A DNA stretch of 64,000 nucleotides. Source: an uncultured Actinomycetota bacterium. Its GTDB lineage: Bacteria > Actinomycetota > Thermoleophilia > Solirubrobacterales > Solirubrobacteraceae. Location of the stretch: NCBI GenBank assembly GCA_963699675.1, contig CAVOUS010000008.1:1126-65125 (forward strand), given 5' to 3'. Positions 33,879 through 42,428 of the stretch are shown here, piece after piece. Position 1 is the stretch's first letter. Every line of letters begins with the position of its first letter. Both the position numbers and the translations under genes were made by a program. The notes under the pieces were generated by a model. The model ran no database searches and was not told the DNA's origin. It saw only the letters and a program-made list of their open reading frames with translations.

Positions 33879-34831
33879 GCGCCGCGGCCCGCGCCAAGGT
33901 CGATGTCCCGCTCGCGTTTGACCAGCGGACCGATGCGGCCGCCGTGGCGGTGCTGCGACGGCTGCTGACCGTGATCCGGGACAACGTCGAGGGCGCGATC
34001 AGCGGCGAGGATGACGAGCACCTGCACCAGCTGCGGATCGCGGTGCGCCGGTCGCGCATGGTTCAGCGGCAGCTCGCCGGAGCGTTCGGACCCGAGGAGC
34101 TGCCCGGATTTCGCAGCGAGTTCCGCTGGCTGCAGCAGGTGACCGGGCCCACCCGGGACCTCGATGTCTACGTCTCAGAGCTCGGCTCGATGCGCGATCT
34201 GCTGCCGGAACCGATCCGGGATGACCTCGGTCCGCTGCGGCCGGTGCTCGTCCACGGCCGCCTCGCCGCCCGCGCCGACATGACCCGCGCGCTCATGTCC
34301 GCCCGCACCACCAACCTGTTCGAGGACTGGGACCGGCTGCTGGAGAGCCTCGTCGAGCTGGCGGCGGAGGACCGGCCGCTGGCCCGGCGCCCGATCGGGG
34401 AGGTGGCGGGCAAGCGAATCACCAAGGTCTACAAGCGGATGGTCCGCATGGGGAAGGCCATCGACGAGGCCAGCCCGGCCACGGACTACCACGAGCTGCG
34501 CAAGAAGGGCAAGGAGCTGCGCTACCTGCTCGAGCTGTTCGGGGTCAAGCTGTTCGACGACGCGACCGTCGGGCCGTTGGTCAAATCGCTCAAGGGCCTC
34601 CAGGACGTCCTGGGCCGCCACCAGGACCGCGAGGTGCAGACGGCGATGCTGCGCTCCACCGCCGACGAGGTGGCGACGCTGCGCGGCGGTGCCGCCGCCT
34701 GCATGGCGATGGGGGTCCTCGTCGAGCGGCTGCGGTCAGACGAGGCGGCCGCCCGCCACGAGTTCGGCGAGCGCTTCGCCGCACTGGCTTCGACGGAGCA
34801 GCGCGCCCTGGTGCGGGAGACTTTCATGTGA
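33875..34831 (+). CDS. CHAD-domain (polyphosphate-binding) protein
   Basis: EHLHQLRIAVRR.R, GPTRDLDV, YHELRKKGKELRYLLE, LQDVLGRHQD. Confidence 0.9.
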   Translation: MSAAARAKVDVPLAFDQRTDAAAVAVLRRLLTVIRDNVEGAISGEDDEHLHQLRIAVRRSRMVQRQLAGAFGPEELPGFRSEFRWLQQVTGPTRDLDVYVSELGSMRDLLPEPIRDDLGPLRPVLVHGRLAARADMTRALMSARTTNLFEDWDRLLESLVELAAEDRPLARRPIGEVAGKRITKVYKRMVRMGKAIDEASPATDYHELRKKGKELRYLLELFGVKLFDDATVGPLVKSLKGLQDVLGRHQDREVQTAMLRSTADEVATLRGGAAACMAMGVLVERLRSDEAAARHEFGERFAALASTEQRALVRETFM

Positions 34832-37800
34832 ACGATGGGGTCGCTGTCCGTCCGCGGACTTGCAGCGACGCCTTCGCCGTGATAGGCCACCGTGTTCAAA
34901 TGGTGCCCGCGACCCTCACCGAGCCGGACCTGGCCGACCTGCTGAGCACACTCCGGGCCGCGCGCGACGGGGACTTCTCCCAGCGGTTCGAGCCCCGGCT
35001 CAACGGGGCCGTCGCCGAGCTGGCCGAGGCCCTCAACGGCCTGCTGGAGCGCAACGACCAGATGTCCCGCGAGCTGGTCCGCGTGGGCAAGATCATCGGC
35101 CGCGAGGGCCGGATGACCGAGCGCGCCGGACTCAGCGACGCCGGCGGCGCGTGGGCGACCGGCGTGGACGCGCTCAACGCGCTCATCGACGACCTCGTGC
35201 GGCCCACCACCGAGGTGGCCCGCGTGATCGGCGCCGTCGCCGACGGCGACCTGTCACAGAAGATGGCGCTGAAGATCGGCGGCCAGCCCGTCAAGGGCGA
35301 GTTCCTCAACATCGGCACCACCGTGAACACGATGGTGGACCAGCTGTCGGCGTTCGCCGACGAGGTGACCCGCGTCGCCCGCGAGGTCGGGACCGAGGGC
35401 AAGCTCGGCGGCCAGGCCGAGGTGCAGGGCGTCTCGGGGACGTGGCGAGACCTCACCGAGTCCGTCAACGCCATGGCCAACAACCTCACCGCCCAGGTGC
35501 GCAACATCGCGCAGGTCACCACCGCGGTGGCCCAGGGAGACCTCGGCCAGAAGATCACGGTGGACGTCAAGGGCGAGATCCTGGAGCTGAAGAACACCAT
35601 CAACACGATGGTCGATCAGCTCTCGTCGTTCGCCGACGAGGTGACGCGCGTCGCCCGCGAGGTCGGCACCGAGGGCGTGCTGGGTGGCCAGGCCGACGTG
35701 CCGGGGGTGGCCGGGACGTGGAAGGACCTGACGGAGTCGGTGAACTTCATGGCCAACAACCTCACCGACCAGGTGCGCAACATCGCCCAGGTGACGACTG
35801 CGGTGGCTCAGGGCGACCTCTCGCAGAACATCACGGTCGAGGCCAAGGGTGAGGTGGCGGCGCTGGCCGACACGATCAACTCGATGACCGACACGCTGCG
35901 CGTGTTCGCCGAGCAGGTGACCAGCGTGGCCCGCGAGGTCGGCACCGAGGGCGTGCTCGGCGGTCAGGCCGACGTGCCGGGGGTGGCCGGGACGTGGAAG
36001 GACCTGACCGAGTCGGTGAACTTCATGGCCAACAACCTCACCAACCAGGTGCGCAACATCGCCCAGGTGACGACCGCGGTCGCCCAGGGTGACCTGACCC
36101 AGAAGATCACGGTCGAGGCCAAGGGTGAGGTGGCGGCGCTGGCCGACACGATCAACTCGATGACCGACACGCTGCGCGTGTTCGCCGAGCAGGTGACGAG
36201 CGTGGCTCGCGAGGTCGGGACCGAGGGCAAGCTCGGCGGCCAGGCCGACGTGCCGGGGGTGGCGGGTACCTGGAAGGACCTGACCGAGTCGGTGAACGGC
36301 ATGGCCAACAACCTGACCAGCCAGGTGCGCAACATCGCCCAGGTGACGACCGCGGTGGCGCAGGGTGACCTGACCCAGAAGATCACGGTGGACGTCAAGG
36401 GCGAGATCCTCGAGCTGAAGAACACCATCAACACGATGGTCGATCAGCTCTCGTCGTTCGCTGACGAGGTGACCCGCGTCGCCCGCGAGGTCGGCACCGA
36501 GGGCAAGCTCGGGGGTCAGGCCGAGGTGCAGGGCGTGTCGGGGACATGGCGCGGCCTGACCGAGTCGGTGAACGGCATGGGCAACAATCTCACCGATCAG
36601 GTGCGCAACATCGCCCAGGTGACCACCGCGGTGGCCCAGGGTGACCTGACCCAGAAGATCACCGCCGACGCCAAGGGCGAGATCCTGGAGCTGAAGAACA
36701 CCATCAACACGATGGTCGATCAGCTGCGGTCGTTCGCCGCCGAGGTGACCCGGGTCGCCCGCGAGGTCGGCACCGAGGGTGTCCTCGGCGGCCAGGCCGA
36801 GGTGGAGGACGTGTCGGGGACGTGGCGCGGTCTCACCGAGAACGTGAACCTGATGGCGGCCAACCTGACCAGCCAGGTGCGCAACATCGCCCAGGTGACC
36901 ACAGCGGTCGCCCAGGGTGATCTCTCCAAGAAGATCACCGTCGAGGCCAAGGGTGAGGTGGCGGCGCTGGCCGACACCATCAACACGATGGTGGAGCAGC
37001 TGCGCTCGTTCGCCGCCGAGGTGACCCGTGTGGCCCGCGAGGTGGGTACCGAGGGCAAGCTCGGCGGTCAGGCCGAGGTGCAGGGCGTCTCGGGGACGTG
37101 GCGCGGTCTCACCGAGAACGTGAACCTGATGGCGGCCAACCTCACCGATCAGGTGCGCAACATCGCCCAGGTGACCACCGCGGTGGCCCAGGGCGACCTG
37201 TCCCAGAAGATCACCGCCGACGCCAAGGGCGAGATCCTGGAGCTGAAGAACACCATCAACACGATGGTCGACCAGCTGTCCTCGTTCGCCGACGAGGTGA
37301 CGCGCGTGGCCCGCGAGGTCGGTACCGAGGGCAAGCTCGGCGGTCAGGCCGAGGTGGAGGACGTGTCGGGGACGTGGCGGCGCCTGACCGAGAACGTCAA
37401 CCAGCTCGCCGGCAACCTGACGACGCAGGTGCGAGCCATCGCCGAGGTGTCGACCGCGGTGACCCAGGGTGACCTGACCCGTTCGATCACCGTCGAGGCC
37501 CAGGGCGAGGTGGCCGAGCTCAAGGACAACATCAACCAGATGATCGCCAACCTGCGCGACACCACGACGCGCAACCAGGAGCAGGACTGGCTGAAGACCA
37601 ACCTGGCGCGCGTCTCCGGCCTCATGCAGGGCCAGCGCGTCCTGGCCACGGTGACCCAGCTGATCATGTCCGAGCTGACCCCGTCCGTCACCGCCCAGCA
37701 CGGCGCCTTCTTCCTCACCGAGTCAGACGCCGAGGGCCAGCCGCGCGAGCTGCGGCTGATCGCCAGTTACGGCTACACCCGGCGTAGCGACGTGTCCGAC

Positions 37801-42006: not shown

Positions 42007-42428
42007 CGGGCGCGTCCGGCAGCGAGCCGTCGGCCCGGAGCGGCCCCGAGTCCACGCCGGCCCCGGACGGGTTCGCCCACGTGGCCATGCAGGACCACGA
42101 CGGCGTGCCGGTGGCCGTCATCAGCGGCGAGGTCGACATCGCCAACATCGACGACATCACCCGGCAGCTCATCGCCCTGCCCAACTTCGCCCCCGGCCTG
42201 GTCGTGGACCTGCGCCGGGTCGACTACATGGACAGCACCGGGATCTCCCTGCTGCACGACCTGGCGGGGCGGCTGCGCGAGCGCTCCCAGCAACTGGTCG
42301 TGGTCAGCCCGCCGGGGTCGCCGCCGCGGCGGGTGCTCGAACTGACCGGGCTCATCACCCGGACCACCGTGGTCGACGATCTCGCGCCGGCGGTGCAGGC
42401 GATACGGCACGTGGCCCCCCTGAGGTAG
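42003..42428 (+). CDS. STAS-domain anti-anti-sigma factor
   Basis: VISGEVDIAN, VVDLRRVDYMDSTGI (phosphoacceptor Ser), RRVLELTGL; GTGA overlap with the upstream stop. Confidence 0.92.
   Translation: MTGASGSEPSARSGPESTPAPDGFAHVAMQDHDGVPVAVISGEVDIANIDDITRQLIALPNFAPGLVVDLRRVDYMDSTGISLLHDLAGRLRERSQQLVVVSPPGSPPRRVLELTGLITRTTVVDDLAPAVQAIRHVAPLR

Follow-up and report, generated by a model that had tools for sequence, protein, structure and literature searches.

An OsaA-type poly-HAMP kinase, an OsaB-type receiver joined to PP2C and RsbW-like domains, and a STAS protein form a conserved three-gene module in Solirubrobacteraceae

Introduction

The coupling of a two-component receiver to partner switching within one polypeptide is already characterised in the HsbR/HsbA system of Pseudomonas aeruginosa and the CrsR/CrsA system of Shewanella oneidensis, where a receiver-PP2C-kinase/anti-sigma protein is encoded adjacent to a STAS gene, and phosphorylation of the receiver sets the balance between phosphatase and kinase activities on a STAS serine (PMC6482189). 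In the RsbK-RsbY system of Bacillus cereus and the RsfS-RsfR-RsfB system of Mycobacterium smegmatis, a histidine kinase feeds a receiver-PP2C protein and the STAS protein is dephosphorylated (PMC10950880); RsbK is a hybrid kinase that carries an inhibitory receiver and needs no histidine phosphotransfer (Hpt) protein (PMC10950880, PMC4574943). In Streptomyces, OsaA is a soluble hybrid kinase with >10 HAMP domains (PMC9739842), and reviews describe the cascade behind it as unclear and the coiled-coil output of OsaB as having no known mechanism (PMC9739842, PMC10117811). In this study, a 64-kb stretch of DNA (the window; 64,000 nucleotides, positions 1,126 to 65,125 of contig CAVOUS010000008.1, assembly GCA_963699675.1) from an uncultured bacterium of the Solirubrobacteraceae (Actinomycetota, Thermoleophilia) was analysed, in which positions 34828-42428 encode a poly-HAMP hybrid histidine kinase, a response regulator of the domain order REC-GAF-PP2C-HATPase_c_2 (the fusion protein) and a STAS protein.

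The fusion is not a new principle, as receiver-PP2C-kinase, REC-PP2C-STAS and PP2C-kinase(-STAS) designs are all known. What is new in this locus is the OsaB-clade receiver, the OsaA-type poly-HAMP sensor in the same operon, and the helix and GAF domain inserted in the fusion protein. An initial annotation, made from the letters of the window alone, had left room for the architecture being already characterised; this proved to be partly the case, for REC-PP2C-kinase proteins with a STAS partner (HsbR/CrsR). No paper on this actinobacterial architecture or on the OsaB-clade pattern was found in a literature coverage that is incomplete.

Results

The kinase, fusion and STAS genes are a conserved unit

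The region 34828-42428 is filled by three co-directional open reading frames (ORFs), with a G+C content at third codon positions (GC3) of ~0.9, as in the genuine genes of this 70% GC window. Pfam matches and the location of individual residues agreed with the initial annotation, which had described a poly-HAMP hybrid kinase, a REC-GAF-PP2C-HATPase protein and a STAS protein with the key motifs of each domain intact. The triad of kinase, REC-GAF-PP2C-kinase and STAS genes recurs in four loci of relatives with 47-77% identity, the fusion gene being 77%, 67%, 51% and 47% identical in L040, L039, L033 and L034, respectively. The proteins nearest to those of the module are from Solirubrobacteraceae metagenome-assembled genomes (MAGs), and the source genome comprises 5.45 Mb in 17 contigs. 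These results indicate that the three genes are a real, intact and conserved module. In soil metagenomes, >120 clusters of orthologs with 67-93% identity were found, and a homolog search with the receiver region alone returned mostly the same orthologs as one with the whole protein.

The surroundings of the triad differ among the loci. While L040 has the flanks of the window, unrelated called genes stand on both sides of the triad in L039, and L033 and L034, from two genomes of the same family, are without the CHAD, arg and coiled-coil genes of the window. Because the triad recurs amid differing flanks, it is the unit and its neighbours are incidental. The CHAD gene, argCJBD and the two downstream coiled-coil genes were considered as parts of the module and rejected, as they accompany it only in L040, the closest relative, and are absent from L033, L034 and L039. 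A scan of positions 33500-43200 for promoter and terminator consensus sequences gave no match.

The receiver of the fusion protein is of OsaB type

Sixteen poly-HAMP kinase loci were retrieved for comparison of their receivers. In 15 of them, the next gene downstream encodes a receiver that scored 126-211 bits against the fusion receiver (129.7 bits for the OsaB-like receivers of L126 and L131), vs. ≤68 bits for all other receivers, that is, the kinases' own receivers and ~30 others of the source genome. In a maximum likelihood tree of 71 receivers, built on just 119 columns, the receivers downstream of poly-HAMP kinases formed one clade (support 100/99), with the kinases' own receivers as its sister group (91/88). 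Among the members of the downstream clade are the regulators of L126 and L131, from genomes of 7.5 and 9.2 Mb, respectively, in which the osaC-osaA-osaB arrangement described for Streptomyces (PMC9739842) is found: a divergent osaC-like gene encoding HATPase_c_2-PAS-GAF-GAF-PP2C, a hybrid poly-HAMP kinase with an open frame of 1841 aa (L126) or 1442 aa (L131), and an OsaB-like protein that consists of a REC domain and a helical tail. The family of L126 (f27) is called Streptomyces-like on the basis of genome size, this architecture and the literature description. By this phylogeny, the receiver of the fusion protein is of OsaB type, as the initial annotation had proposed, since it shares the 100/99 clade with REC plus coiled-coil proteins encoded beside OsaA-like kinases.

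OsaB-type receivers carry diverse outputs, namely none or a coiled coil, (PAS-)HisKA-HATPase_c, and GAF-PP2C-kinase in the window locus and its orthologs. Further, the receiver is joined to PAS-GAF-PP2C-kinase in L127 and L128 (same family), and to PAS-GAF x3-PP2C-kinase-STAS in one chain in L129 (same class). These REC-PAS-GAF-PP2C-kinase(-STAS) fusions back the Rosetta-stone link between receiver and partner switching that had been drawn from the window alone.

Domains and residues of the fusion protein and the STAS protein

The fusion gene begins with a GTG start that has a GGAG motif on its 5′ side. The receiver residues D15/D16, D59, T89 and K112 are present, and an alignment of ten proteins with 32-59% identity (alignment A1) showed that D16, D59 and K112 of the receiver, the metal-binding D356, D374, D494 and D541/D542 of the PP2C domain, and E601, N605, D635, G637, G648 and G650 of the GHKL domain are invariant. 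The GAF domain is weakly conserved in sequence, with few invariant columns in A1. In the AlphaFold2 model of the protein (mean pLDDT, the predicted local distance difference test score, 80.7), the final receiver helix runs on as one 51-residue helix into the GAF domain, and on this model the helix of residues 116-166 is the counterpart of the OsaB coiled coil.

The best solved relative of the PP2C-kinase half is the RsbU-RsbW pair of M. tuberculosis Rv1364c (3KE6), which matched residues 332-676 of the fusion protein with a phmmer E of 4e-40 and gave a Foldseek E of 1e-25 at 31% identity; the best structural matches of the PP2C domain were 3KE6 and the RssB phosphatase domain. The fusion protein matched 9344 representative clusters at E <1e-30, and most of the 150 best listed clusters align solely from the GAF or PP2C domain onward, so the GAF-PP2C-HATPase_c_2 order is very common behind other N-terminal sensors.

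The initial annotation had read the protein as a fusion of an OsaB-type receiver to PP2C and an anti-sigma kinase, in contrast to the separate OsaA, OsaB and OsaC of Streptomyces. This stood for the receiver, which is of the OsaB clade, whereas the PP2C-kinase half is not an OsaC ortholog, and its likeness to OsaC applies at the level of domain families only. A literal fusion of OsaB with OsaC was rejected on two counts: the best match of the OsaC-like protein in the source genome is another PP2C gene, C3:697117-698328, rather than the fusion protein, and in the Streptomyces-like genome the fusion PP2C domain matches another protein better than OsaC. No separate, divergently encoded OsaC-type gene (RsbW-like kinase-PAS-GAF-PP2C) was found in the window.

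The STAS protein matched Pfam STAS with an E of 1e-12. Its GTG start (42003) and the stop codon of the fusion gene overlap by 4 bp (GTGA), and the equivalent overlapping start was picked by gene callers in two relatives; an alternative start, ATG 42087, would yield a protein of 113 aa. The putative phosphorylation site is Ser78 within MDSTG (codon 42234-42236), and all STAS orthologs and fused versions keep the serine of the DS(T/S)G motif. Among solved structures, 4QTP and M. tuberculosis RsfB (8IH8) come closest to the protein. For neighbourhoods outside the Pfam runs, domains were called with phmmer queries and a five-sequence STAS profile, which divergent STAS genes may escape.

The poly-HAMP kinase

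The kinase ORF encodes 1690 aa from GTG 34828, a start that overlaps the upstream CHAD gene; because relatives align only from ~residue 27-35 on, the true start is probably ATG 34900. Nine stretches of the protein matched Pfam HAMP (E 4e-91) and nine matched HAMP_2 (E 4e-85), and Tandem Repeats Finder resolved 7.9 copies of a 276-bp unit (92 aa, a double-HAMP) with 85% identity. The repeated motifs are spaced 92 residues apart, and the repeat is the core of the HAMP array (~residues 40-925). No hydrophobic segment pointing to a membrane anchor was found in the kinase. H1150 (in SHELRTP), N1270 and D1621 are present, as are T1651 and K1673 of the C-terminal receiver, while a pseudo-REC has Gly1474 in place of the acceptor Asp; related kinases carry two or three receivers where this pseudo-REC sits. 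Being soluble and hybrid with more than ten HAMP domains, the protein has the architecture of OsaA, in line with its earlier labelling as Osa-like.

The source genome holds only one such kinase. When the N-terminal 1057 aa of the protein were used as query, poly-HAMP-GAF hybrid kinases were found in 35 of 301 sampled Actinomycetota genomes, and the repeats are 70-80% identical to those of the Streptomyces-like kinases. The number of double-HAMP units varies widely among orthologous kinases, whose open frames range from ~1230 to 2270 residues. Near-identical 276-bp repeats could drive copy-number change or collapse in assembly.

Other receiver-PP2C fusions and PP2C genes beside poly-HAMP kinases

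A second receiver clade (100/100) holds proteins of 1270-1480 residues with the order sensor-HisKA-HATPase_c-REC-PAS-PP2C-HATPase_c_2, followed by a STAS gene, in Streptomyces, Actinacidiphila, Paractinoplanes and Actinokineospora. The kinase-REC-...-PP2C-kinase order with a STAS gene next to it, as in P0234 and several actinomycete proteins, extends the Rosetta-stone series, and an Actinomycetospora MAG has a 1822-residue frame (L063 1888-7353) of the order HisKA-HATPase_c-REC-PAS-GAF-GAF-PP2C-HATPase_c_2-STAS. Since PP2C-kinase fusions occur with two separate receiver clades, the tree indicates at least two origins of receiver-controlled phosphatase-kinase fusions in Actinomycetota, with OsaB-type and with kinase-attached receivers.

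The 1822-residue protein of L063 holds a whole two-component and partner-switch pathway, the sigma factor excepted, in one chain. The source genome also has a 1374-residue kinase-REC-PP2C megafusion frame (C5:8367-12488), whose receiver belongs to the same clade as those of the Streptomyces/Actinoplanes HK-REC-PAS-PP2C-kinase proteins; the source genome thus has both kinds of receiver-controlled PP2C.

Poly-HAMP kinases often stand beside PP2C genes even without a receiver fusion. A PP2C domain in the downstream regulator or a neighbouring gene was found in 14 of ~20 poly-HAMP loci examined, vs. a rough chance expectation of 2-10% by our own estimate from 7 PP2C genes in a 5.4-Mb genome. In L034, a PP2C-HATPase_c_2 gene that has no receiver, with a STAS gene behind it (15840-17752), lies divergently upstream of the poly-HAMP kinase and makes a second partner-switch pair at this locus. 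The Streptomyces-like loci L133 (1697-11318) and L134 (318-12239) contain a second, shorter poly-HAMP hybrid kinase of ~1460 aa, which sits between a SigB-like sigma gene and PP2C and STAS genes with no intervening receiver protein.

Neighbouring genes and feature coordinates

The gene order of the window is pheST, argCJBD, the CHAD gene, the triad, two coiled-coil genes and dnaE, and the coordinates of the module are listed in Table 1. Positions 29569-34831 hold argC-argJ-argB-argD, followed by the CHAD gene and the triad, and the same arrangement is seen in L040; argF/argR, which are usual in actinobacterial arg operons, are not at this cluster. The second coiled-coil gene (44120-46670) matches a single 879-aa gene of L040, the match being split over three window frames (44120-45190, 45241-45591 and 45804-46664), a split that implies two frameshifts, or errors of assembly, in this stretch of 79% GC. 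The dnaE gene of L040 (17089-21684, 1531 aa) holds an intein (Intein_splicing), whereas that of the window (46740-50342, 1200 aa) is without one. No group 1-3 sigma gene was found in the window, in agreement with the initial annotation, which had reported no SigB-type sigma gene there.

Table 1. Positions in the window of the three-gene module, its domains and the adjoining upstream gene
Feature	Position	Strand	Evidence
CHAD-domain gene	33875..34831	+	Pfam CHAD; neighbour only
Poly-HAMP-GAF hybrid histidine kinase, OsaA type, soluble	34828..39900	+	Pfam HAMP, HAMP_2, GAF_2, HisKA, HATPase_c, Response_reg
Tandem array of double-HAMP units	35319..37509	+	Tandem Repeats Finder
Kinase GAF domain, residues 939-1076	37642..38055	+	Pfam GAF_2, E 4e-16
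Kinase HisKA + HATPase_c core	38248..38925	+	Pfam; SHELRTP motif; His1150 at 38275-38277
Kinase pseudo-REC, degenerate receiver-like	39100..39522	+	Response_reg E 0.0036, under Pfam cut-off
Kinase C-terminal receiver, intact, residues 1572-1684	39541..39879	+	Pfam Response_reg, E 2e-29
REC-GAF-PP2C-HATPase_c_2 response regulator, 689 aa	39937..42006	+	Pfam, alignment A1, AlphaFold2
OsaB-type receiver, residues 11-123; Asp59 codon 40111-40113	39967..40305	+	Response_reg E 3e-23, bit scores, clade
Long continuous helix, residues 116-166, REC to GAF	40282..40434	+	AlphaFold2 secondary structure
Fusion-protein GAF, residues 172-308	40450..40860	+	Pfam GAF_2, GAF, GAF_3
PP2C (SpoIIE-type) domain, residues 365-550	41029..41586	+	Pfam SpoIIE, E 5e-52
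RsbW/SpoIIAB-like GHKL serine kinase/anti-sigma domain, residues 563-675	41623..41961	+	HATPase_c_2, E 9e-24
STAS anti-sigma-antagonist-like protein, 141 aa from GTG 42003	42003..42428	+	Pfam STAS, STAS_2, TIGR00377

Discussion

A proposed signalling route and the alternatives to it

Starting from the observed anatomy, catalytic residues, recurrent triad and OsaB clade of the receiver, we infer a signalling route with all of its phosphotransfer steps, its stimulus, its sign of regulation and its output through a sigma factor. It appears somewhat probable that the three genes work as a single signalling unit, in which a two-component system is linked to a partner switch via Asp59, with a SigB/F-type sigma factor as output. 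The soluble poly-HAMP-GAF kinase would autophosphorylate at His1150 in response to a signal for which osmotic or water stress is the probable candidate, on the analogy of Streptomyces OsaA and the fungal group III kinases (PMC10117811, PMC13446029), and the phosphoryl group would pass directly to Asp59 of the OsaB-type receiver, with the kinase's own receiver (Asp1621) acting as a competing sink or an autoinhibitory element. The state of Asp59 would be relayed through the ~50-residue helix and the GAF domain and decide, within one polypeptide, how far the PP2C phosphatase or the RsbW-like serine kinase prevails, both of which would target Ser78 of the putatively translationally coupled STAS protein. 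Unphosphorylated STAS protein would then bind a free RsbW or the fusion GHKL domain and thereby set free a SigB/SigF-type sigma factor whose gene lies elsewhere. Candidate outputs in the source genome are ~8-10 group-3 sigma genes, 6 STAS genes and several RsbW-like genes, and contig 11 contains a sigma-RsbW-STAS-RsbW-sigma cluster (C11:70-74 kb).

Several points weigh against this route. Hybrid kinases usually signal via an Hpt protein; the kinase here is a hybrid with its own receiver, and the direct His-to-Asp transfer and the sign of regulation are conjectural in the scheme. The source genome has a weak Hpt-like ORF of 113 aa (C17:391305, E 1e-3). The function of the module in this lineage is deduced from sequence, the fusion protein may receive a separate input through its GAF domain, and the exact ortholog is patchy, being present in 3 of 151 sampled genomes of the family, the source genome included, and in none of 400 other genomes sampled across the phylum. 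The sign of regulation is not predictable here because the known systems differ: phosphorylation activates RsbY and the HsbR phosphatase and inhibits RsfR (PMC10950880, PMC6482189). Further, the triad has no linked sigma gene in the window, L033, L034, L039, L040 or L127-L129, so that the sigma output is an assumption, and HsbA-type STAS proteins also bind targets besides anti-sigma factors (PMC6482189).

The last two points bear on an unlikely alternative with the same wiring up to the STAS protein and a non-sigma output, in which the GHKL domain would be a STAS kinase only and the STAS protein would act in an HsbA-like manner, on targets that might be enzymes, diguanylate cyclases or unrelated anti-sigma factors, depending on its phosphorylation state. 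Besides the lack of a linked sigma gene in these loci, the binding of HsbA to FlgM and to the cyclase HsbD (PMC6482189) favours such an output. However, the PP2C-kinase pair is most like that of Rv1364c, a reported SigF binder (PMC10950880), the STAS protein has its nearest match in RsfB, an anti-SigF antagonist of mycobacteria, and sigma genes adjoin related poly-HAMP and fusion loci in Streptomyces-like genomes.

The intact receiver of the hybrid kinase and the Hpt-like ORF, together with the input that HsbR receives via HptB (PMC6482189), would fit a multistep phosphorelay from His1150 to Asp1621, a free Hpt protein and Asp59, which we consider improbable. An Hpt-mediated relay was disfavoured, as no Hpt gene stands in the operon or in any version of the conserved locus, and the sole free Hpt-like ORF is under the Pfam cut-off and does not co-occur with the module, being absent from five genomes that carry it (G406, G465, G158, G210 and G131). 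Direct transfer is favoured for the same reasons, and also because the sister receiver clades fit two substrates of one dimerization and histidine phosphotransfer (DHp) domain, because RsbK feeds RsbY and has an inhibitory receiver of its own (PMC4574943), and because S. coelicolor reportedly lacks Hpt proteins despite having OsaA/OsaB (PMC9739842); the fused kinase-REC-PP2C proteins likewise show a receiver fed in cis without Hpt. As a separate observation, the weak Hpt match (C17:391305-391550) has an H-A-A-R-N-S motif and is conserved in one genus-mate (G145). That the adjacency is incidental, with the fusion protein an orphan that takes its phosphoryl group from acetyl phosphate or a different kinase while the poly-HAMP kinase signals elsewhere, is hardly credible: nothing specific speaks for it apart from the own promoter of Streptomyces osaB (PMC9739842), whereas kinase and receiver are adjacent in 15 of 16 loci across the phylum, the receivers form a dedicated clade, and the triad moves as a unit among different genomic contexts.

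Implications for OsaB

The main value of the module is its Rosetta-stone evidence that OsaB-type receivers feed PP2C/RsbW/STAS switching. The locus and its relatives give a testable answer to the question of what OsaB does, as the OsaB-type receiver clade shares a chain in them with phosphatase and serine kinase domains, and even with the STAS substrate. A tentative extension, about which we have more doubt than confidence, is that OsaB-type receivers are a dedicated link from OsaA-type kinases to PP2C/RsbW/STAS partner switching across Actinomycetota. If so, the Thermoleophilia fusions would reveal in cis the role that free OsaB plays in trans in Streptomyces, where the phosphorylated OsaB coiled coil would control OsaC or another PP2C-kinase protein and, through it, sigma factors of the SigB family; this would identify the output of OsaB and account for signalling by a hybrid kinase in the absence of Hpt. 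With at least two origins within Actinomycetota, apart from the proteobacterial HsbR/CrsR, receiver-controlled phosphatase-kinase fusion is a recurrent design that links two-component sensing to sigma control. The practical weight of the module is modest and concerns stress signalling in soil actinobacteria and in antibiotic-producing Streptomyces.

Comparison with known systems

With RsbK-RsbY and RsfS-RsfR-RsfB, the triad shares a histidine kinase, a receiver-PP2C protein and a STAS protein of the type that antagonises the SigB/SigF anti-sigma factor. In contrast to the fusion protein, RsbY and RsfR are without a fused kinase domain and without a GAF domain, and RsbK and RsfS are membrane CHASE3 sensors, unlike the soluble poly-HAMP array of this locus. 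The contiguous PP2C and RsbW-like kinase domains are shared with Rv1364c (3KE6), in which an N-terminal PAS takes the place of REC-GAF and the STAS domain is part of the same chain (PMC10950880) rather than the product of a separate gene. The proteins of L128, with PAS, and L129, with PAS and STAS, are nearer to Rv1364c than the window protein is.

Compared with OsaA/OsaB/OsaC of Streptomyces coelicolor (SCO5748/5749/5747), the kinase is like OsaA in being soluble and hybrid with >10 HAMP domains and a GAF domain, the receiver falls in the OsaB-like clade, and the RsbW-like kinase, GAF and PP2C domains of OsaC are all present (PMC9739842, PMC10117811). Unlike OsaB, which has a coiled coil only, the receiver is linked within one chain to GAF-PP2C-kinase; the domains are arranged in another order than the kinase-PAS-GAF-GAF-PP2C of OsaC, to which the PP2C half is not orthologous, and a STAS gene belongs to the unit, unlike in OsaABC. 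OsaABC has a role in osmoadaptation through SigB, and an osmotic stimulus for the present kinase is suggested by analogy with it.

The closest described design is likened to the locus by architecture, not by sequence: as in HsbR/CrsR, the receiver, PP2C and GHKL domains are in one chain with the phospho-acceptor Asp present, and the adjacent STAS gene encodes a phosphorylatable Ser. The present protein differs in the GAF domain and the ~50-residue helix between receiver and PP2C, in the actinobacterial OsaB clade of its receiver and in the kinase encoded in the same operon, and no Hpt is found in the operon or related loci, in contrast to the HptB-HsbR route. The GHKL domain of HsbR/CrsR-type proteins sequesters a sigma factor (RpoS), and a corresponding sigma binding is predicted for the fusion protein. 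As its receiver lies in an actinobacterial clade, convergence with HsbR/CrsR is suggested, and the fusion of this Thermoleophilia lineage probably had an independent origin.

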